Of a DNA stretch of 64,000 nt, positions 42,030 through 64,000 are shown one piece after another. Origin of the DNA: a bacterium. Its GTDB lineage: Bacteria > SAR324 > NAC60-12. The notes under the pieces were generated by a model. The model saw only the letters and a program-made list of their open reading frames with translations, did not search any database and was not told the origin of the DNA. The first letter of the stretch is position 1. Every line of letters begins with the position of its first letter. A program made the translations under genes and the position numbers. The stretch is taken from positions 124,884 to 188,883 of the forward strand of contig CBDBHR010000023.1 of assembly GCA_965205865.1 (NCBI GenBank). Direction: 5' to 3'.

Positions 42030-42270
42030 GGTCCCCCCGAGGGGGCCGGTTCGCTCTCACACAGTGGAAGGTGAGAAAACCCCGGAGGGGTGACAGGGCA
42101 TAGCAGCCATTTATGGCTGGGCTAGGCCACCAAACGGTTTTAGTCCCAGAGGGACGACACTTTTTCTCAGGGCGCTTTCAGTGTCGTCCCTCCGGGACTG
42201 GAACCCTCATCAAAATCGGTCCCCAGCCATCAATGGCTGGGCTATAACCTTTCGTCCCTCCGGGACTAAA
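42030..42270. repeat. REP/BIME-like palindrome cluster
   Basis: Repeated GTCCCTCCGGGAC and CAGCCATYWATGGCTG hairpins. Confidence 0.7.
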
Positions 42271-52685: not shown

Positions 52686-52801
52686 CTGGAAGCGCGGTTC
52701 TATGCTGATCAGCTTCAGCTAATAAGGGGTCCTGTGTATACAGGTTCCGAATACCACCAGTTCCGCTGGTGGATGCTGATTTGAATAAGGGTCAGGCTTC
52801 G

Positions 52802-53734
52802 TTATTTCGTTAATTTGTTTCGTATAGTTTCGTATTGCTCCTTCAGTTGAGAATCGACAGATAACTTGTTTTTCAATCTCCCAACCCCTTCGCAAATGGT
52901 CACGATATCCCTATTAAAAAAAAGAGCAATTCCTTGAAATGAAGCCACGGAAAACTATTCAGCAAATAGCGCAACAAAAGCTCTGGCAAGCGCGTTTTTT
53001 CTTTGCCTGCCAAGCATTTTGAGAACCTCAGGATTCACTTGCAAGACTGCTCCGACATCTTGTAGAATATCTTCTCATTTTAATGCAATTTGAACTTTTT
53101 CTTCCGCACTCCGGAGAGCCCTTTCCGCAAAGCTGTCATCACCAATAATATCGGGTTTGGTCTCTCCTTTTCGAAAAAGAGAGGGATCTTCTTCCCTCTC
53201 ATCAAGGAAAGCAGCATATTTTCTGATAGCCACCCGTTTGCTTTTTCCAAACCTTTGATAAACCGTATCTCGATAAACCCAATCCTTCTGCTCACTTTCC
53301 AAATAACAGAGATGGCTGCTGTAGGGATAGTTTTTCAGATCTTTCACCAAATCGGCACGTAAAGGATTTTGATGAATGTAGCGGATCAATCCTAAAAGAT
53401 AACGTTCCTCATCGACCAAGATCGCTTTATATCGCCCCTGAAAAAGATGACCCATCCGTTTTTGTTGTTAATTGATTTGGCGCGTGTAACGAAAGGAGAG
53501 ATTCTGCATTATTTTTGATAAAGTCAGCTCGCCAACTTGAAGAGTAAAATGCATATGAATACTCATCAAATAAAAAGCATGGACTCGATAATCAAATCGC
53601 TCGATTCCTTCCTCCAACAAAGAATAGACCACTTGGCGATCACTATCGGAAAAAAAGATACTTTGACCTCCATTGCCACGAAGCATCACATGGTAGATGC
53701 CTCCGGGGAGATGAATACGGGGTTTACGAGACAT
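52802..53734 (-). pseudogene. REP-associated tyrosine transposase with C-terminal HTH, several nonsense codons
   Basis: YHVMLRGN, HMH (HUH), GHLFQGRYK, YIHQNP, YSS. Confidence 0.88.
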
Positions 53735-53814
53735 AGGATTCCTTCCAAAGATTGGGTGAAAACATTCAAGGAGATCCTACCACAAATATAAAATTTTTAA
53801 TAACGAATTAACGA

Positions 53815-54506
53815 GTCACCGTAAAGAACTGACTTATAGTGGTTTCCAGCCACCTTTCGTCATTCCTCCGGTACAGATCCGGACGTGCGCTGCTAACGCA
53901 TCCGGCTCCTGCTTCGAGTCAGACGCTCAAACGTTGCCGTTTGGCGCACCCTGCTTAAACCGCTCTCTGATTTTACCGGCCTCTGAGTTCCGAACACAGG
54001 AGGGCAAGCAGAATTCCTCTCAGCCAAGTCCCTTTGCTCCACAGGCTCCGTTGATTTCCTTTGCATTATTACTCTCTACAAATGATCTCATTGTTCACCG
54101 CTTCATCGCTACTACGAACTTGTCCGACTTCCTGAAGACGTAGATATCGGGGTTATTTATTAATTTTCCCGATCCGACTACCAATAGAATGTTGACAGTC
54201 GTCTTCAGGATCTCCCAGGTTCCGATCAAGAAACTTCCACACATGCACCGGGTCTTTGACTCCGCCAGGCTCAGCCGAGACTCACGCTAAGGCCTTCGGT
54301 TGATATTGCCTTCCCCACCAGACCACAAGGTCAGCGCCTGAAACTATGATTTCGGAGCTCAATACCGAGCCTATGTTCTCCCCTGTCAACGCTTAGCGCC
54401 TATCCTTGCGAATAACCACTCATGACTCGGGGACTCGGCGGCTCGTTACTGCCTTACCGAGTAAGAGACTTTCACTCTCTATTTCTTGCCAGCTTTCCTG
54501 GCGCAC
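53815..54506 (-). mobile_element. ORF-less group II intron A
   Basis: 5' GTGCG; domain V GAGCCGGATGCGTTAGCAGCGCACGTCCGGATC; 3' AC; removal restores the TIR. Confidence 0.88.
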
Positions 54507-54567
54507 AGCCTGACCCGAACTCAATTATGAATAGGCATTGACCACTTTTTTGAGATATTCCTCAAGG

Positions 54568-54711
54568 GTAACTATTTAGGTGCGAGTTTCCTGGGTTTGC
54601 GGGTATTTTCCTTGGAAAAAGCGCAAAAAATCATTCACTTTTAAGGTATTTTGACGCAATTTAGAGGTTCTGTCGCCCTCTAGCCCAGTGTTTTAGCACC
54701 TAAATAGTTAC
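54568..54711. mobile_element. 144-bp MITE with perfect 16-bp TIRs and an 8-bp target duplication
   Basis: CCTCAAGG|GTAACTATTTAGGTGC...GCACCTAAATAGTTAC|CCTCAAGG. Confidence 0.9.
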
Positions 54712-54816
54712 CCTCAAGGCTAAATATAAGAGTTTCATGACACTCTCATCATGAGGAAATGAACTTCTATTTTTGATGATTTTTCTCAAACTTCGATTGA
54801 CCGATTCATTGGCATG

Positions 54817-55060
54817 AATGGGGACAGGCCGAGTACGCTAAGAATGGGGACAGGCCGATTACGCTAACATAAGACCTGGATTCGGATTAAAAGCCTCATT
54901 GATTTTTCAAGAGCGCCCACAAACCTTCCACCTCGGCCAAGGCTTCTTTCTCTCGTTGCAAGGCGTTCCCCTTCTTTTTCTTTTCGTTCTTTTTGAAAGC
55001 GTTTCAGGAGGAAGGGGCTGTAGAGCGGATCATCGACAAATGTTTCCAACTCAAAGATTT
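54817..55060 (-). pseudogene. Remnant of another RAYT-like element with a tandemly duplicated end
   Basis: GAATGGGGACAGGCCGAKTACGCTAA x2; TRERSLG..RFVGALEK resembles RAYT C-termini. Confidence 0.45.
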
Positions 55061-55186
55061 CCTCCAAATCTTGGAGACGAAAGGCAAATTCCGGCAACGT
55101 TTGCGAGCGAATCACTCCTGCATTGTCAGGAACCATAGGTTGGTAGACGCCTTAAGAGGTCAATCGGTAAAAAGCGGTATGTTTTT

Positions 55187-55690
55187 TTAATCGATCCACA
55201 ATATAATATTCTCGCACTCCCACCGCTTCATATTCTTTTTTTTTGAAAATCGTGTCTCGCTCCATTTCTTTCTTGGTGAAATCCGATAAAAACTCAACGC
55301 AGACATCACAAACACCTCGAAAGGAACGGTCTAAATCTTGAGTGGCAATGGGGTTGGTATGGCGTTAATCACGGCGAGATCCGGTTTGCGAACGCTCACT
55401 TCTTCTCCCATATCCAGCCGAAAGACCATATCCAGCCCCATCAGCCTTCCCACCGGAAAGGTTTTGAGATACTCTTTCAAGAGCTGTAAAAACCATTGGT
55501 ACATTTCGAAGCTCAAATAATCCGACATCGGTTTCTCCTCCAAAAGGCCGTTGTTCCATTCATAGTGAAAGTCCGGATGTTCATAGTAATTTTGCCAATA
55601 ATCCTGCTCACTGATTCGTTTTCCGGCCTCCAAAGAAATAAGTGTTTTCTTCTGGGGTTTCGTTTCCTTTAAGATGTCCGTTGTTTCCAT
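55187..55690 (-). pseudogene. Uma2 family endonuclease, frameshifted
   Basis: YEWNNG.LEEKPM, RKPD, VEFLS, GVREYYIVD across frames. Confidence 0.8.
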
Positions 55691-55964
55691 GAAAATCTCC
55701 TTTGCTCTTGAATGGGTTGTCACTTCCTCACATCAAACTGTAACATATTCCGCTTCCCCTTGTAAACAGACCGACGGAGGATGCTCTGCTGTTTGGTCAT
55801 AATCATAAATCTCAATCAGGGCTTCCATCGTCTTCAACACTTGCCGGGCTTCCGAGTTTTGCCATTGCTCTTTGAGCTTGTTTATTTACCATTTTTCCTT
55901 TTTTCTGCTCCCTTTTCTTTTTGACCTTCTGCACAACTCTATGATGGGCTGTTTTTTTTGCGCA

Positions 55965-56743
55965 CGCGAACGCAAAAGTGAGCCGTTGCTTTTTGCAGAG
56001 CGTAGCGGCGCAGAAAGTAATCGGTCTCCACTGATTTGTGTGTGCCCGGCATGGGCATGAACTTATGGGGTGTGAGTCCCCTGTACATTATCCGAAAAGT
56101 ATACTAGTCAGCTTATGATTACAACTTTAAAAAGTACTAGCCGAGGGCAAGTGCGGGGAGGTGACGAGCCGTGCGGAGGAAGCCTAAGCGCAAACCTACG
56201 AGTCGACGGACAGAAACAGCATATAAGGCTGAACTTCGGGGCGAGCAAGCACAACATTGCGATGTCCACTCGGATTAAGGAGGATGGTAAATGCTGCGAT
56301 TGTGTAGGGAAAGTTCATGCTCTTACCCGGGGAGATCTGATCGTGATGCGGTCGGAGATAGTGAGATGAAGACTAGAAGAGCCAGGAGCGGTTAATTCCT
56401 CTCTTGCGCATCACTCTCCTTCTTCTCGTTTGTCTCAGGTAGCGCGGTGTCGAGTAATCGGCAACGAAGGCGGTCAGAAGTCAGCCGAGGGCATAGTAGC
56501 TCCTGGAGAGTGAAGGCCCGAACCCAAGAGAACGCTCTATCCCATATGCTCTGTACATTGATGAAGCCGACCGGTGGAGATGATTAAAATAGGTGCGTTG
56601 TGGGACGAATAAACGTACAGGTTTGTGGTTGCAAATCTGGTCCGGCTACGGCCCGACACTCTTTGGGAATCGCCCCGTACGGACCCGTATGCGGGGTGGT
56701 GTGGGAGGGAGGGGAGAAAAACCCCTTCCTATCCCGATTCGAT
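55965..56743 (-). other. attC site (about 80 bp when rejoined) interrupted by group II intron B
   Basis: R'' ATCGA|AC, CAGTGGAGACCG...CGGCTCACT, R' GTTCGCG. Confidence 0.8.
56040..56738 (+). mobile_element. ORF-less class C (attC-type) group II intron B
   Basis: 5' GTGTGCCCGGCATGGG; short domain V CGCCCCGTACGGACCCGTATGCGGGGTGG; 3' CCCGAT; TTGT|T insertion site. Confidence 0.9.
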
Positions 56744-57115
56744 TTATGCAATTTTAAGTGCGTTTCTGACAGCATTTGGATTTCGTTCAATTACCTTCAA
56801 TAAGGTTCTTGCGGCCTGATCCGGACGAACCCTTCTTTGCTCCCAATCTCTCAGTGTCGCCAGAGATAAATGAAATGTCTTTGCGAATTCTTGTTGGGTC
56901 ATACTAAGCTTGGCTCGTATCAGTTTGACATCAACAGTGGGGTGTAAGTCTTTCCGTTGGGAGAGGGGAGGTTCAATCAAGGCATCAGGATCATTTAATG
57001 CATTTTGATAGACTTCTTCCTCAGTCATTGAATCAATTCTTTTCCAATCAGTCTTTCCTTGAGGAATCTCCTTTAAAGAATTAACGGTAATAGCTGTAAT
57101 ATTCTTATTCTTCAT
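56744..57115 (-). CDS. HTH (Xre-like) antitoxin
   Basis: TDWKRIDSM, MTQQEFA..TLRDWEQ. Confidence 0.85.
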   Translation of the reverse strand: MKNKNITAITVNSLKEIPQGKTDWKRIDSMTEEEVYQNALNDPDALIEPPLSQRKDLHPTVDVKLIRAKLSMTQQEFAKTFHLSLATLRDWEQRRVRPDQAARTLLKVIERNPNAVRNALKIA

Positions 57116-57350
57116 ACTTTTCTGCCTTTCTTGCTGAAATGATACGAATATTGCTTCATCTCCAAGTCTACACAACATAAAGAATGCGACCTTGAGCCAT
57201 TCCAATGACATTAAACCGTTCCTCATCCCAGGAAGTATCATCCAGTTCAACTCGTAGTTCATCGAAAAAAACAGGAATAGCTTCTTGAAAAGAAAGACCA
57301 TGAGTTTCGATATTCATTTGGTTCTTATTTTCATCCCATTCAAATTTCAA
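57105..57350 (-). pseudogene. BrnT family toxin with in-frame stops
   Basis: MKFEWDENKN..HGLSF, EERF..IG, RIISARKA after TAG and TGA. Confidence 0.85.
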
Positions 57351-57450
57351 ACGCTAAATGTACGGAAATTCCTTAATCACGTCAACAAAGGATTCCATCA
57401 GAATATAATGAGTTTGATCCTATCCGAGAAAGTTTTTTTCTGCATCGAAC

Positions 57451-58410
57451 AACGAGGATGCCGGGGTTCTCTATCAACAACACGCCCTGAAGCAAAAAGC
57501 GAATATGCAAACTTTTTTGGCCGGCGGCGCCGCTGCCGGCGATTATGATAACGACGGCTGGGTTGATCTCTATGTCACCCGCCTGGATGACACGGACCTG
57601 CTCTTTCGCAATCAAGGCGATGGCACCTTTAGCAACGCCACGCTTAACGCGTTTGGCCCGACACCCATCATCGCACCCACAAACGGGGCGCAGTGGGGCG
57701 AAATTGACAACGATGGCGACCTGGATTTGTATGTGACCGTGATCAATGCCAAGCGTCATTATCTGTACATCAATGATGGCCGGGGACACTTTACCGAAGA
57801 GGGCCTGGACCGGGGAGCGGCCATGAGCGGCTGCCACGTCCTCTACGGCTTCAGTGCCAGTTTTGGCGATTATGACCGGGATGGCTTTCTTGACCTGCAT
57901 GTGACGGAATGGTGGCGGCAAAATCAAAACAGCAGCCGGCAGGACTATTACAATATTCGACTGCTGCGCAACCGGGGCGCCGACAAACCGGGCCATTTTA
58001 CGGATGTGACCGAGAGAGTCGGCGTCGGCATGGAAAAGGTCCGTATCAAGCTGGTTGATTCAACAAAGCTTCACGCCGCGGCCGCCTTCAGCACCCGCTT
58101 TACGGATCTGGACCGAGATGGCTGGCCCGATTTGATCATTACCTCGGATTACCGGACCAGCCGCTTGTTCTGGAATAATGGGGACGGCACCTTTAGCGAT
58201 GGCACTGTCTCGGCCGGTGTTGGTCAAGAAGAAAATGGCATGGGATCAACCGTCGGCGATATGGATGGCGATGGTGACCTGGATTGGTTTGTCACCTCTA
58301 TTTGGGCGGGGAATCTTGTTAAAGAATATGTGACGGGTAACCGACTCTATCAGAATAACGGTGACCGTACTTTCAGCGATTTCACCGAGGATGACAACGC
58401 AGAGCAATAA
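57451..58410 (+). pseudogene. FG-GAP/VCBS repeat (CRTAC1/UnbV-like) protein fragment
   Basis: Repeated GDYDNDG..DLYV and LF.N.GDGTF; both ends look truncated. Confidence 0.8.
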
Positions 58411-58517
58411 TATAACTGGAAATAGCGAATGTTTATTAACCCATACGTTTGTCAATGAGGTGGAAATAGAAGCGATCGCTCTTTGTGATTCATAATACAC
58501 GGGCTGAGGAGAAACAT

Positions 58518-58616
58518 ATGAAGATTTTAGTCACCGGTAGGACGGGTCGCATTGGGGCCAATTTGGTCAAACAACTGTTGGCCAAAGGGCATGAGATTCG
58601 TAGCTTTGTCTATCCT
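58518..58616 (+). pseudogene. NAD-dependent epimerase N-terminal fragment
   Basis: MKILVTGRTGRIG with RBS. Confidence 0.6.
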
Positions 58617-59112
58617 GTCACCCACCGCAAACAGCGTTTCTTGAATGTGTTTTTCAATTCACCTTGCCCTCCAACCTCCAAATTCTCACCGCTGGGGTTT
58701 CCGAGTTTGATTTGGAAGCCTCTTCGGTGAGGGTGCTCATTCGAGAGCTCTCATCAGCATCGGGCAAATCCGGAAGCCCGGCAGTTGTTATCTGAGACTC
58801 AAACGATAAATCGTTGCTCAGACTCATGAAATACCGGAGGAGGCGTTGTAGAAGCAAAGCGGTCAAATCTCATTTTGTCTTTTAAGCTCCCTTTTCCTCA
58901 AGACCAGCGGGCGGTGCCTTGATTTGACTATTACGGATTACGGGGGTTATGGGTGACACGGCATGAGCTGAAGAATGCGCTGATCCCGGTGCTCACCATG
59001 GTCGGCCTGCGGCGGGCTGTCTTGATTGGCGCCATACACTGTGATACAAAAAGAGAGATTCAGAGCATCTTTCTTAACAAATATTAACCGATGGCATTAG
59101 GAGAGGTTCAGC

Positions 59113-59660
59113 AATGACGATCTTAGCACAACGGCAGATTGGTAACACAGGCACCCACGTCACCCCATTTGGCTTGGGATGCGTCCCCCTGGGCGAACTT
59201 ATTGAGGCCATCAGCGAGGAGCAGGTCCAGCAGACCCTGCAGGCCGCCTAGGATACCGGGGTCCGCTGTTTTGACACCGCACCCTTGTATGGCTACGGCA
59301 AAAGCGAACAACTGGAATTGAAGGATTTGTTGCTTCTCGCTCTCCAAGAATCCGGGTTGGTCCGGACAACTCGCAATCACACAGCATTTAAAAGGAGTAA
59401 AACAAATGGAAACGGTGACAGCGGAAAGGGGAAAGTGATTCGTGCGGATCCCCACCGGAGAAACCGTCTTTGAAGTATTGGCGCCCCAGCTCCGGAGGTC
59501 ACCTCCTGTGCTTTCGGCGGCAAAGCTTGGTACGAGCTCTACATCACCACGGCTGCCTCGAACAAGATCGACGACGATTGGGAAACCCATCCCCATTCCG
59601 GAGGCTTGTTCTGCGCTAAAGTGCCCTTCCATGGGGTACCCTCTGCCCGATTTCAAGGGT
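59113..59660 (+). pseudogene. Adjacent fragments: aldo/keto reductase N-terminus and SMP-30/gluconolactonase C-terminus
   Basis: FDTAPLYGYGKSE; QVTSCAFGG..LYITTA-like in shifted frames. Confidence 0.6.
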
Positions 59661-59728
59661 AGGGTAGCCCACTGCTCCCTAAAAGCGAAGGGTATTTGTC
59701 CTACGCGGTCCGGCCCATCCTACGAGGC

Positions 59729-60718
59729 CTAGCCCAGCCCATCCTGCTTCAGTCTGCTGCCATACCCTTCTTTATCCGGCGTGCTAATCTGGCCTAACTT
59801 TCTTCGATTGTAGTAGTCATCAATCACCGCCTTCTTTTCTGTATCATTGAACGTATCCCAGATTTTCTCACGCATGTACCAGGAGATTGGCCCCCGGGAA
59901 TCCTGCCACCCCCAGGGATCGTCATAGTTGAGCAATTCCCGGAACCGGGCATCATTGCGTGCCAGCATTTCTTCATTGATGCGGCCGTGAAAGTTTTCCT
60001 GAAGCCGGTAATGCGGCCCGACATAATGGCAACTGACCGAGAGGCGCAGACCAGGAGTGAGCTTGGGAAACGCTCCATGCCAGACATTGCCATGAAATGC
60101 CAGCACCGAGCCGGCCGGAGCTTCTACGGGAATTGCATCCTCCACCCCTTCGCCGGGTTCAGGATGGCGGCAGTATTTGTGAGAACCGGGCACAATGCAA
60201 AAGGCTCCATTCGCTTTCGTGTAGTCCGTGAGAATCCAATTGGTGTTGAAGACATGCGGAATCGCCGGTAGTGAGCTATACCCCGGATACATCCCCGTAT
60301 CGTCGTGTAGCCCCAGGTTTTCTCCATAACCGACAGGATCCTGCCATTTGATGAAACAGGTGAGCGAAGACAGCTGGCAATCCTCCCCGAGATAGTATTC
60401 CATCAGCGGTAAAGCCAACGGGTGTTGGATGATCTCCTCGAAGACCCGGTCTTTCTCCAGAAACGCAAAGAGCAGATGCTGACCGTTATTGGTGCCCATA
60501 TTCATTTGCGTACCATGGGCGCCTGTCTCGATGTCATATTTCGCTCCCGTATCTTCCTCAGCAATACGGAGAACCGCTTCGCGCATACGCTCCAGGATAC
60601 GGTCCCCTCCTATCTTTTCAGGAGGAATCACAGTCAAGCCATAGGCATCCAGCTCTTCCAGATGGTCGGTCAGTCCCCGCTCTTTGATCTCATGGTAGGC
60701 TGGGGAGATATGCTTCAA
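59729..60718 (-). CDS. Phytanoyl-CoA dioxygenase family protein, paralog of 33657-34595
   Basis: Shared CQLSSLT, KWQDPVGYG, HDD, PGSH; the original ATG appears to be followed by TAG. Confidence 0.8.
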   Translation of the reverse strand: MKHISPAYHEIKERGLTDHLEELDAYGLTVIPPEKIGGDRILERMREAVLRIAEEDTGAKYDIETGAHGTQMNMGTNNGQHLLFAFLEKDRVFEEIIQHPLALPLMEYYLGEDCQLSSLTCFIKWQDPVGYGENLGLHDDTGMYPGYSSLPAIPHVFNTNWILTDYTKANGAFCIVPGSHKYCRHPEPGEGVEDAIPVEAPAGSVLAFHGNVWHGAFPKLTPGLRLSVSCHYVGPHYRLQENFHGRINEEMLARNDARFRELLNYDDPWGWQDSRGPISWYMREKIWDTFNDTEKKAVIDDYYNRRKLGQISTPDKEGYGSRLKQDGLG

Positions 60719-60869
60719 TTGTGTCCAATTTTTCTACATCGGAAAATCAAAAATTATGTAAGTCATGTTACCGTGAAAATATCTGGTGGCTGAGGGCGCA
60801 CTTAGAGTGAGTGGGCCTGAAGTCCACGTTTTAGCCACAATCAGATGGATTTTCTAGGTGATGCGCTTC

Positions 60870-62096
60870 TCAGTTTGAGTTTTTTGGCAAATACCCATAT
60901 TTACTAAGCGCCTTCAACCATCTGGGAGCATTTTTTTTGACAACGAGTGCCTCATAATCAATTTGAGGATCTCGATAAGGTTCTTGCTTCTTGAGAACAA
61001 TGTAAATTATTTGAAGCATTTTATGAGCAATGGCAACGATACTACGCTTGTGTCCCCGGCGAATCACAAGGCCTTGATATCGTCCTTTAAATTGCGATTT
61101 GGTTTTGATGGCAGCATTAGCACATTCACATAATAATGAACGAACATATGCATTGCCTTTACGAGTTTTACCGGTTTTGCGTTTTCCTGCACTTTCATTG
61201 TTTCCAGGCGAGAGTGCCGCCCATGAACAAAGATGGTGTTTATTGGGAAAAGCACCCATATCGGTGCTAAGCTCGGCCAGTAACATCGTGGCAGAGATGT
61301 GGTCAATTCCAGGAATGGTTTGCAATAAGTGATATTGCTCCTGATACGGGACCATCGCCGCAACGAGCTGCTCATCGATTTGCTCTATCCTGGATTCGAG
61401 CCATACCATATGGGCCTGAATCTGTTTGAGCAAAAAACGTTGGCGCTCACTCAAAGAAGTGGACAATGATTTTTCAATCAGAGCCAACTTCGGAAGCAAC
61501 CTACCATGTAAAAGGGAGGCAAGTTTATCCGGCTGAATCCCGCCACTCTCAATGAGAGTAGCGATCATTCTTCGTGCCGAAACGCCATCGATGTCACTGA
61601 GCACGAGCCCTAATTTGATACCACAACTTTCAAGGATTTTGTGCAAGCGATTTTTTTCGCTACTCAAAACGCCTGAAAGTTTTTTACGGTAACGTGTCAA
61701 CAAACGAAGTTGACGAAAATCTTTTGGAGGAACAAAACTGGCTTTGAGTAATCCACAACGGGCAAGTTCTGCTAACCATTCTGAATCCTGTACGTCGCTC
61801 TTTCGACCAGGAACTTTTTTGATATGGTAGGCATTGACCACCCAAGGAATAATTCCCACATTTTCGAGAGACTCATAAACTTGTTTCCAGTAAATGCCTG
61901 TGGATTCCATGACCACTAACTCTGGGTTTAACTGCTTTAACCACTGAGCGAGTTCTTCCAAATCTTGTGAAAAGGTCTCGAATTCTTTGACCTTTTTGCT
62001 TATTTGTCCATCGCGATTCTCATGAAGCACTGTGGCCACAATCACAGCGCGATGAATATCTAGACCAGCACTACTTTGAGCTAAGGGTTGAATCAT
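60870..62096 (-). CDS. IS110 family DEDD recombinase
   Basis: GLDIH, VMESTG, KSDVQD, TIPGI, ESAGK. Confidence 0.95.
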   Translation of the reverse strand: MIQPLAQSSAGLDIHRAVIVATVLHENRDGQISKKVKEFETFSQDLEELAQWLKQLNPELVVMESTGIYWKQVYESLENVGIIPWVVNAYHIKKVPGRKSDVQDSEWLAELARCGLLKASFVPPKDFRQLRLLTRYRKKLSGVLSSEKNRLHKILESCGIKLGLVLSDIDGVSARRMIATLIESGGIQPDKLASLLHGRLLPKLALIEKSLSTSLSERQRFLLKQIQAHMVWLESRIEQIDEQLVAAMVPYQEQYHLLQTIPGIDHISATMLLAELSTDMGAFPNKHHLCSWAALSPGNNESAGKRKTGKTRKGNAYVRSLLCECANAAIKTKSQFKGRYQGLVIRRGHKRSIVAIAHKMLQIIYIVLKKQEPYRDPQIDYEALVVKKNAPRWLKALSKYGYLPKNSN

Positions 62097-62109
62097 CTTC
62101 TCCTCCTTT

Positions 62110-62330
62110 CCTGAATGTAGTAGTTGGCTTCACTCGTAAAGGAGGCTGAAAAATCACTTTCTTGGGTTACCTGCCTCCATGAATCAAAATTGAATCCTGA
62201 AGTCGGTCTTCTTACCGTACCTTCTGTAGAAATACTACGAAACACTCCGGGGTGCGAACCAATGAAAGCTACGCTCAGGTTACGTGACAGGATCAAGTCG
62301 CTAACGTGAGAAACGAGCGCTTCAGCCTCT
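62110..62330 (-). ncRNA. Candidate bridge RNA
   Basis: Contains CACGTAAC (target match), then ACGGTAA and CATGGAGG (donor matches); boundaries approximate. Confidence 0.65.
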
Positions 62331-62444
62331 ATTGAGTTCTAACATATTTTCATCTTCCGGGGTGAAAGCATAAGTTTTCATGAAGGTTACGTGTATATTT
62401 TTTGCATTCAGCGGTTTCCATGAATACGTTTTCCCACAAGTGTG

Positions 62445-63359
62445 ATAGGGGTCAGGAAGGCATTAGCCTCCCTGCCCTCCGAACCGTGCGTGCGGTTCTC
62501 CCGCACACGGCTCTCCAGTCGTTGGTTTCCTCATCGGGATTGGCTCGCTACCCATCGGACTTCTTTTCCTGCCTGTCAATTTAGGTTCGTGTTTGTTTTC
62601 CCTGTTAGCCATCTGGTTTCCCGATGGTGTCACAATATCCTCACCTTGTTGACAGACACAACCATGGTGAAAAGTCCGAGTTGTGCGAAGAAGAGATCTC
62701 CTTTGACTCCGTTACCCAGAGCCGCCAACATACGTTCGATCCATATCGTTGTTTCCACCCATCTCCAATGAGGAGAGGCTTCTGTTTCCAGGTTAGTCAT
62801 CTCCGACACTTTGGAAACTCCTTTTCTTGAGGATCAACTTGATGAACTGCTCGTATCCAACTTCCTACCCCGCTTCCCTCTTCGGGATTTTGCTTCTCCC
62901 GCCTTTCATGAAGCCTGCCTGTCAATTTAGGTTCGTGTTTGTTTTCCCTGTTAGCCATCTGGTTTCCCGATGGTGTCACAATATCCTCACCTTGTTGAAA
63001 GACACAACTCCATTACGGTACTATCAGGGTTCTGACTCCTCTACCTCTCACCAAAGGCAGAGGTCTCCCTGCTTCTCTCGCTTAACCTTCCTGATGTTCC
63101 GTCCCCAACCACGTTATGCGCCTGACCCTCGTTTTATCCACCACCGCAACGGGATCAGTGAGTTTCAGACTTCGCCACGAATGAGCAAGCTCGTCGCTAA
63201 CATGCCGCCGAATCGGGTTCGTTCTCCTACGGACCACCATTTCGCCTCCGGTTGCTCCCCACCCCGCCTCATGGCGACGCAGTTACCTTCGGCTACATGG
63301 CTGTGGTTTACCATGGCACGGACTTCCACCGCGCTGATTAAGCGCCTTCCCAGGCGCAC
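62445..63359 (-). mobile_element. Group II intron C with internally deleted RT
   Basis: 5' GTGCG; domain V GAGCCGTGTGCGGGAGAACCGCACGCACGGTTC; 3' CCTAT; RT remnants WVETTIWIERMLAAL and FFAQLGLFTM. Confidence 0.9.
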
Positions 63360-63734
63360 TCATTCCTGGCGAAGACCAGGAATCCAGGAGTCGCCATCAT
63401 GAAAACCTACTACGTTTATATCTTAGCAAGTAAAAGAAATGGCACTTTATATATTGGAGTGACCAATGATCTTCTTAGAAGAGTTTATAAACATAAAAAC
63501 AATCTCATAGAAGGATTTACCAGTAAATACCAAGTACGTCAATTGGTATACTATGAGACCACTTCAGAGGTAACAACTGCTCTCCGGAGAGAAAAACAAC
63601 TTAGGAAATGGAAACGAGCTTGGAAAACCGAACTCATTGAGAAAAATAATCCTCAATGGATAGATTTATATGAAACGTTTTAGTCACCCTGGATCGCTAG
63701 CATAGTGGATTCCTGATCTTCGCCAGGAGTGACA
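63360..63734. repeat. Inverted REP pair flanking the GIY-YIG gene
   Basis: (TG)TCATTCCTGGCGAAGACCAGGAATCCA and TGGATTCCTGATCTTCGCCAGGAGTGACA. Confidence 0.85.
63399..63683 (+). CDS. GIY-YIG nuclease family protein
   Basis: YYVYIL..LYIGVT..RR..H, REKQLRKWKR. Confidence 0.92.
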   Translation: MKTYYVYILASKRNGTLYIGVTNDLLRRVYKHKNNLIEGFTSKYQVRQLVYYETTSEVTTALRREKQLRKWKRAWKTELIEKNNPQWIDLYETF

Positions 63735-64000
63735 ACTCGATGAGACGCATAACTGCAAAAATCGTTCGCGGTAACATCAGTTAATCAATCATCTTCGTTT
63801 TCATCACGTTATAAAGAATTGCATGGAAAAGGGGTCAAGTTTTTTTAGCTTTAAAGAAAAACCTTACCGAATGAGGAAACGGATTTCCAAGAAGAAGGAT
63901 TTGCGGACTCGCTGTAGAGGGTATCACTTTCCGCTTAAAAACGACGGTCTCTTTGTCGGGAGCCGTTATCGCTTCAGAGAACTGATCTTTCAAAAACCTG

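Follow-up and report, generated by a model that had tools for sequence, protein, structure and literature searches.

Within 10 kb of a 64,000-nucleotide stretch of bacterial DNA (the window; positions 124884–188883 of contig C23) lie three group II introns, here called A, B and C, none of which holds an intact open reading frame (ORF) for a reverse transcriptase (RT). The window belongs to a 4.74-Mb, 30-contig assembly, 92% complete, of an uncultured SAR324-like bacterium. The 10-kb part discussed here is very probably an accumulation of selfish DNA in which three degenerate group II retroelements, from separate lineages, each occupy a homing site typical of their lineage. Intron A belongs to a large family that homes to the ends of transposons resembling those of REP-associated tyrosine transposases (RAYTs; REP, repetitive extragenic palindrome). 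Introns within mobile elements are known as such; in the full text of open-access papers we found no description of RAYT or REPIN ends as homing sites of group II introns.

Identity and boundaries of the introns

Intron domains were located with Rfam models at gathering thresholds, supplemented by a permissive scan below the cut-offs. Intron ends were read from the sequence and boundaries were set where genomic copies cease to resemble each other (Table 1). Above threshold, RF02005 matches intron A at 54250–54472 on the minus strand (166.7 bits), RF02001 and RF01998 match intron B on the plus strand at 56155–56321 (110.9 bits) and 56443–56518 (53.7 bits), respectively, and the domain V/VI model RF00029 matches intron C (54.3 bits, cut-off 40). 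In the domain V alignments the catalytic triad is AGC in introns A and C and CGC in intron B. No RT match was found in the ORFs of the three introns, and intron C retains just short N-terminal and C-terminal RT remnants. At a blastn threshold of E ≤ 1e-5 each intron matches its own family alone, with no mutual nucleotide similarity detected. The original prediction had described mutually unrelated, ORF-less group II introns with GUGYG/AY ends; given the Rfam domains, the copy comparison, the lack of an RT frame and the family-only blastn matches, both its coordinates and that description hold. We regard all three as non-autonomous group II ribozymes. Relatives of A and B that do encode an RT are present in the same genome.

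ORF-less introns are the rule in this genome, since domain V is matched at least 50 times at E ≤ 0.01 (150 of 331 candidates scored) against ten RT domains over the Pfam cut-off. At least five group II intron families occur in it together.

Table 1. Features of the window and, in the last two rows, introns nested in A copies on contig C28
Feature	Position	Strand	Description
RAYT-like element	52789–54516	minus	Right end GGGTCAGGCT-TCGTTATTTCGTTA; left end GGGTCAGGCT-(intron A)-TCGTTAATTCGTTA
Right terminal inverted repeat	52789–52812	minus	Plus strand reads GGGTCAGGCT then TCGTTATTTCGTTA; inverted motif 900 nt past the point where the Y1_Tnp match begins
RAYT-like Y1 (HUH) transposase gene	53075–53734	minus	One in-frame TAA, leaving ORFs of 88 and 126 aa
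Left terminal inverted repeat, inner part	53791–53814	minus	TCGTTAATTCGTTATT...; 3′ exon of intron A
Intron A	53815–54506	minus	692 nt, ORF-less; ends GUGCG...AC; domain V/VI 53815–53910; EBS1 loop GGUCUG at intron nt 183–188
Left terminal inverted repeat, head	54507–54516	minus	GGGTCAGGCT; 5′ exon of intron A; final six bases CAGGCT are IBS1
Palindromic repeat, ~140 bp	54568–54706		12 other genomic copies, 88–100% identity; no associated gene identified
Intron B	56038 or 56040–56738	plus	~700 nt, ORF-less, class IIC; ends GUGUG...AU; domain V/VI 56668–56738
IS110-family element	60767–62385	minus	1619 bp; transposase gene 60870–62096; NF033542, 271 bits
REP final bases CA	62443–62444	minus	First bases of the 3′ exon of intron C; split GGAATGA/CA
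Intron C	62445–63359	minus	915 nt, ORF-less, RT remnants; ends GUGCG...AU; domain V/VI 62445–62515
REP hairpin	63360–63387	minus	CTGGATTCCTGG-TCTTCG-CCAGGAATGA; left REP of the GIY-YIG unit; 5′ exon of intron C
Small GIY-YIG nuclease gene	63399–63683	plus	94 aa; PF01541, 59.5 bits; between inverted REPs, the second at ~63705–63745
Nested ORF-less intron	C28:263297–264204		Three further copies
Nested ORF-less intron	C28:326614–327516		Two further copies

Intron A and the ends of RAYT-like transposons

The sequence GGG(T/A)CAGGC(C/T) stands exactly at 30 of the 41 5′ junctions of A-family introns, and with at most one mismatch at 37. This head motif has 203 genomic sites, 31 of them occupied by an intron; GGGTCAGGCY alone occurs 164 times against 14.7 expected. 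Its consensus extends to RAAANGGGGTCAGGCY, with ~16 nt conserved, and upstream of the head most of the 41 flanks are unrelated. On the other side of the intron, 23 of 36 3′ junctions have an inverted mate of the head within 1250 nt, compared with 135 of 5000 random sites, and 14 of the 36 lie in miniature elements with the mate within 130 nt. The heads form 20 inverted pairs less than 400 nt apart, which fall into size classes of ~50–85 bp and ~365 bp; the ~365-bp elements include the start of a RAYT-like gene.

Fifteen matches to Y1_Tnp are found in the genome, and ten of these genes have the head motif on both sides. In intact elements the motif lies 118–148 nt before and 873–1068 nt after the start of the Y1_Tnp match. 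An A-family intron shifts the left motif by 692 or 1957 nt in five of the ten repeat-flanked genes and the right motif in none, and the same RAYT subfamily bears either intron form. The common frame of 335 aa (312 aa from the first ATG) combines a Y1_Tnp match (52 bits) with a DnaA-type C-terminal helix–turn–helix (HTH; 34.3 bits); against NF047646, the NCBI model of REP-associated tyrosine transposases, it scores 70.3 bits, under the equivalog cut-off of 80 bits. According to Bertels and Rainey, RAYTs are reportedly single-copy in most genomes. We use the name RAYT-like because the 15 Y1_Tnp matches, at least ten of them repeat-flanked, represent the behaviour of a multicopy transposon, unlike that of a single-copy RAYT.

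The transposase gene of the window is itself degenerate: it matches Y1_Tnp with 30.6 bits, the TAA lying inside the match, and its pieces score 28.1 and 34.1 bits against NF047646, under 80. Removal of intron A had been predicted to restore a terminal inverted repeat of a RAYT element. An empty paralogue of the site at C3:112253, where GGGTCAGGCT is directly followed by TCGTTGATTCGTTATT, bears this out, and the result generalizes to the whole A family. Once ligated, the two exons would read GGGTCAGGCT-TCGTTAATT.

Two other repeats lie beside the element. The ~140-bp palindrome was considered as the target of intron A and rejected, as it is a separate repeat 61 nt from the intron. Positions 54824–54870 hold two direct copies of GGGGACAGGCCGAKTACGCTAA, four bases apart, which are unoccupied variants of the A target head.

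Pairing of intron A with its 5′ exon

In a search for exon-binding site 1 (EBS1), domain I of intron A was aligned with 14 relatives from other genomes and both Watson–Crick and G–U pairs were counted. In nine of the 14 relatives, a hairpin loop of nine bases can pair with the final six bases of the intron's own 5′ exon at the inferred junction, and five different exon sequences are paired in this way across them (CAGGCA, CACCCA, CGTTAA, CGCTCA and CGCTTA). The loop sequence GGUCUG of intron A can pair equally with CAGGCC and with CAGGCU, and this accounts for the C/T with which the motif ends; within the family, EBS1 reads GGUCUG in 23 copies and AGUCUG in ten. Judging from this covariation, site choice by intron A is ordinary recognition between EBS1 and intron-binding site 1 (IBS1) of the exon. 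For the upstream GGGG(T/A), recognition by an EBS2 is one possible reason for conservation, and simple homology of the targets is another. AGCCUG, CUGACC and GACCC, proposed from complementarity as EBS1/EBS2 candidates, were rejected, as they lie inside Rfam-predicted helices or show no covariation.

The A family and its RT-bearing parents

A blastn search of the genome gave 16 copies of the 692-nt form with 96–100% identity. Nine further copies diverge at nt 571, the place at which the full-length parents of 1957 nt carry an insert of 1265 nt. This insert codes for an RT that lacks an endonuclease domain; the frame is intact in four cases (473–477 aa) and shortened in two. In a comparison with PDB entries the RT is equidistant from the IIA, IIB and IIC examples, and is not near the IIC RTs. 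Two more families of ORF-less group II introns, of ~830–910 nt, are nested at nt 400 and nt 396 of A copies (Table 1). A tandem A–A pair is found at C26:239009–240180 and rearranged A copies also exist.

Relatives of intron A in other genomes

Searching with the A-family RT gave 38 loci in many phyla, the nearest at 81% (L001, full length) and 86% (L023, residues 273–470 only). The family is present in two of 30 related genomes. In the congeneric genome, that of a sister species, RAYT pieces lie directly downstream of the intron at four of the six loci with a 3′ junction, and a fifth locus has an inverted mate 51 nt away. The 5′ exon GGGACAGGC is found in a Psychrobium genome and in metagenome-assembled genomes (MAGs) of Spongiibacteraceae and Planctomycetaceae.

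At greater distance, tblastn found RAYT-like sequence after the intron at three of the 38 loci. The downstream ORFs were scanned at 30 loci, taking the longest per locus (40 of 210 ORFs of at least 70 aa). The ORF at L030, in a deltaproteobacterial MAG, scores 31.1 bits against Y1_Tnp, over the cut-off, and 22.7 bits against NF047646; that at L034 scores 19.7 bits against Y1_Tnp, under the cut-off. NF047646 is also matched at L027 (Thiodiazotropha; 37.2 bits, E = 2.5e-9) and at L039 (Psychrobium), where a frameshift divides the gene into two parts scoring 16.2 and 25.2 bits; the E values at L039 and L027 range from 1e-5 to 2.5e-9. All three NF047646 matches, that at L030 included, are significant although they stay under the threshold.

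Psychrobium also has a set of 108-bp elements (L041, G001:C1:1250300–1257500), in which the first 79 nt of a related intron stand in a hairpin A7-GGGACAGGCA...TGCCTGTCCC-T8. Their structure suggests intron remnants that have lost their interior and stayed behind in the target.

Intron C at a second REP family

All five C copies begin after a hairpin of the form GGAWYCC–stem–loop–stem–GGRATGA, the stems of which differ by compensatory changes, and all full copies are followed by CA. GGRATGACA has 346 occurrences, 152 of them with a perfect 8-bp hairpin, and for GGAATGACA alone the count is 285, where 37.4 would be expected. The REP split in the window forms the left side of a unit with a GIY-YIG gene (window 63360–63745). 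Counting the window's own, there are 11 near-full copies of the unit with conserved outer flanks. In eight of the ten others the same REP and outer flank are uninterrupted, so that they are exact empty sites. The expectation that removing intron C would restore a REP is confirmed by these eight paralogous sites and by the position of all five copies; the ligated exons would read GGAATGA-CA. The unit looks like a REP system with a GIY-YIG partner in place of a RAYT. More than 150 members of the GGAATGACA REP family are solitary hairpins.

UCAUUC at nt 176 of intron C, in domain I, is complementary to GAAUGA and may pair with it. The copy in the window has an internal duplication of 96 nt that is missing from the other copies, and a 96-nt skip (62566>62663) appears in all four sequencing runs. 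The fourth RT gene of the genome (C30:878514–879902) was considered as the RT of intron C and rejected, as it shares nothing with the intron. Intron C also holds GAGGGTCAGGCG (window ~63120–63131), which resembles the A target; in another C copy (C28:322040–322281) the same position has the sequence GGGTCAGGCC and holds an inserted A intron, so that A is nested in C.

How introns A and C may spread

We propose the following course of events. The A-family intron, with an RT that has no endonuclease, would recognize its site through pairing of the EBS1 loop with CAGGCY, the last six bases of the ~16-nt head RAAANGGGGTCAGGCY, the head being the terminus of the inverted repeats in RAYT-like Y1 transposons and in their miniature derivatives. 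It would reverse-splice directly after the head, and the repeat would as a result be split at the DNA level. The 692-nt form would have arisen when the RT gene was lost, and its copying most likely depends on RT provided in trans by full-length copies in the same cell, because many near-identical ORF-less copies stand at different sites beside intact parents. Intron C would likewise insert at GGAATGA/CA, where the hairpins of another REP family, unrelated to the first, have their foot, and intron B would land after TTGT, often by a small hairpin, at non-repeated sites. For A and C, multicopy repeat ends would serve as harmless addresses, and safe landing sites in many copies would be of benefit to them. 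The original prediction spoke of non-autonomous ribozymes specialized on the ends of multicopy mobile DNA: this stands for A and C, which sit at multicopy palindromic repeat ends, and falls for B, which has no repeated element. A genome-wide check for further copies at unrelated sites does not refute it for A and C.

Several results weigh against this reading. Some intron domains score under their cut-offs: domain V/VI (RF00029, cut-off 40) reaches 39.0 bits in intron B and 31.0 bits in intron A, and the domain I match of intron C to RF02001 (63121–63278, minus strand) has 25 bits, under a cut-off of 32. No exon–exon joint of A or B was seen in the assembled contigs of two RNA-library runs and two runs of unknown kind, a form of data that cannot show absence, and the C-less joint 62444>63360 was seen solely in the two runs of unknown kind and may derive from the empty paralogues. 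Four of the 41 A junctions depart from the motif by two bases or more, and a mate within 1400 nt is lacking at 13 of the 36 3′ junctions. The EBS2 and δ pairings of intron A were not identified, the candidate segments showing no covariation. No RT for intron C was found in the assembly (92% complete); with no cognate RT left, C may be a fossil. Among the distant relatives of A, a RAYT-like ORF lies downstream at only three of 30 loci. In Psychrobium, where the head motif has 15 sites against one for the control, it forms the arm of a hairpin with an A-run and a T-run, and none of the five strongest Y1_Tnp genes lies close to the motif.

The last two observations make the link between intron and RAYT across taxa suggestive, not proven. 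The endonuclease-less, RF02005-type lineage may, though this is less likely than not, be a long-standing partner of RAYT-like Y1 transposons, one that homes to the conserved outer head of the left end, lies within the element in the sense orientation to the transposase, and has kept this habit in the SAR324-like genus, another deltaproteobacterial MAG, Psychrobium and Thiodiazotropha.

A further possibility is that the introns form a guild that exploits mobile palindromes, either riding along when a DNA element transposes or inactivating the ends of the element. Either could happen, given the position of intron A within the element, one end of which it interrupts: it stands 10 nt from the outer edge, so that it would be taken along whenever the complete unit moved, and its insertion parts the conserved head from the inner palindrome. 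The same idea would suit the 14 3′ junctions in miniature elements, the restriction of insertions to the left end, sense to the RAYT gene (five of ten left ends, none of ten right ends), and the recurrence of intron–RAYT adjacency in other taxa. However, RAYT frames are about equally often intact in elements that carry an intron (C29:725125 and C29:732023, 335 aa each) as in those that lack one (335 aa at three loci), which gives no sign of disabling; the sequence outside the heads varies between copies, as independent homing predicts; and intron B does not fit. We consider the guild unlikely.

Less probable still is spread chiefly by duplication or recombination of repeat-rich segments at the DNA level, the motif being merely what such segments share. 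Some observations would agree with it. Five RAYT copies lie within 23 kb on C29, two of them intron-bearing with the same 3′ flank; the tandem pair and the rearranged A copies point the same way, as do two B-family sites, on C24 and C26, with a 90-nt 5′ flank in common. Duplication alone is nevertheless unlikely, since the outer flanks of most A copies are unrelated, intact empty sites exist and, among relatives, changes in the exon are matched by changes in the EBS1 loop; the junctions are moreover precise to the base, and one RAYT subfamily carries both the 692-nt and the 1957-nt form. Retrohoming to the repeat ends by EBS1–IBS1 pairing is the reading that we retain for the A family.

Intron B and the attC question

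Intron B has three copies, with 99.4–100% identity, at three unrelated sites. Three relatives of 1952–1955 nt are 99–100% identical to it over the stretches compared (nt 1–100 and nt 33–302), and the RT of the 1955-nt relatives matches that of GsI-IIC (Geobacillus; 6ar1) over its full length at 4.3e-118. A CGC triad in domain V is typical of class IIC, the class to which intron B belongs. All ten B-type 5′ ends found by pattern, one of them divergent, read TTGT-GTGTGCCC; TTGT is all that they share before the intron, and the 5′ end of B is ambiguous by 2 nt. The 70 nt upstream of B-family introns fold with z ≤ −2 at four of the nine sites folded, and for B no exon complementarity longer than 4 nt was found.

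Removal of intron B was said to restore an integron attC site, and this was not borne out. Class IIC introns at attC sites (IIC-attC introns) are well known, TTGT being the IBS1 of such introns, and intron B has the class, the TTGT at the end of its 5′ exon, an orientation antisense to small neighbouring genes, a position directly after the stop of an HTH gene (56744–57301) and, 20 nt upstream, an imperfect 62-nt hairpin that may be the source of the earlier call. An attC site is nonetheless highly improbable, as a test made by core motifs only finds no RYYYAAC or GTTRRRY core within 140 nt of B on either side or strand, the best integron-integrase match in the 92% complete genome has 43 bits against a TIGR02249 cut-off of 265, similar to 14 control genomes, the 200 nt of 5′ flank occur nowhere else in the genome, and the nine B-family sites compared have no palindrome in common. 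Intron B is, to all appearances, an ordinary IIC intron at an ordinary IIC-type, non-repeated site after TTGT, often beside a small hairpin.

Neighbouring features

The IS110-family element lies ~60 bp from the 3′ end of intron C and from the CA that closes the interrupted REP. Members of the IS110 family are RNA-guided transposons. In contigs of the two RNA-library runs its end at 62385 is joined back to 60767 with five shared bases, which would fit an excised circle or a tandem copy. Elsewhere in the window, an Acido-Lenti-1 RNA (RF01687) is matched at 42222–42267 with 52.1 bits (cut-off 37).

Relation to known systems

The closest parallel for a genome filled with ORF-less introns is that of Thermosynechococcus elongatus, with its ORF-less TeI3/TeI4 families, as described by Mohr, Ghanem and Lambowitz (2010; PMC2882425). 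In both cases one genome holds many near-identical copies, most of them without an RT gene and presumably served by a few full-length ones, and introns are nested in one another. In contrast to TeI3/TeI4, the main family here homes to the end of a DNA transposon and to its miniature derivatives, at least five families are present and the host is an uncultured SAR324-like bacterium.

Class IIC introns insert after terminator hairpins, and introns also occur in other mobile elements (PMC12584367). Intron B belongs to this class by the similarity of the RT of its relatives and by the CGC triad, and intron C and the A lineage also sit at the foot or arm of DNA hairpins. They differ from it in that the RT of A is not near the IIC RTs, A reads a six-base IBS1 within a longer head and C has AGC; moreover, A and C need a specific repeat sequence rather than any hairpin.

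RmInt1 of Sinorhizobium meliloti is said to home into the insertion sequence ISRm2011-2, inside its DDE transposase gene. Like RmInt1, the A family is a high-copy intron that lacks an endonuclease domain and naturally homes into a different mobile element; unlike RmInt1, it is directed to the terminal repeats of Y1 (RAYT-like) elements and of their gene-less derivatives, which amount to ~200 sites.

An IStron is a group I intron fused with an IS200/IS605-type transposon, a single chimeric unit that is moved by the transposase. The A family shares with it the physical coupling of a self-splicing ribozyme to a Y1/HUH-type transposon, but here the intron and the RAYT-like element have separate enzymes and joint movement is putative.

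REPs have been described as targets of insertion sequences by Tobes and Pareja (2006; PMC1525189), in whose table ISPpu9 and ISPpu10 are each REP-associated in seven of seven copies and a group II intron of Pseudomonas putida KT2440 in two of nine. Here too REPs act as landing pads for mobile DNA, the IS110 element lying ~60 bp from the REP that intron C interrupts. Unlike that of the P. putida intron, the association is near-complete (37 of 41 for A and five of five for C), and the junction is precise to the base and explained by EBS1 pairing.

Biological meaning

Bacterial group II introns persist by landing harmlessly, and terminators and other mobile elements are their known havens. The A family uses an end sequence of the REP/RAYT type as its address and so has ~200 harmless sites at its disposal within a single genome, and the association of intron and RAYT-like element appears to recur in distant bacteria. 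Its target is a natural, sequence-defined site at which site choice by endonuclease-less introns can be studied, and the ratio of ORF-less introns to RTs makes the genome a useful natural case of the proliferation of non-autonomous introns. If the long-standing partnership with RAYT-like transposons is true, the lineage would be a group II counterpart of the IStron, with a single-strand DNA transposon as the niche, and possibly also the vehicle, of a retroelement; it would link retroelements with single-strand DNA transposons, the two great classes of selfish DNA, each of which operates at replication forks.

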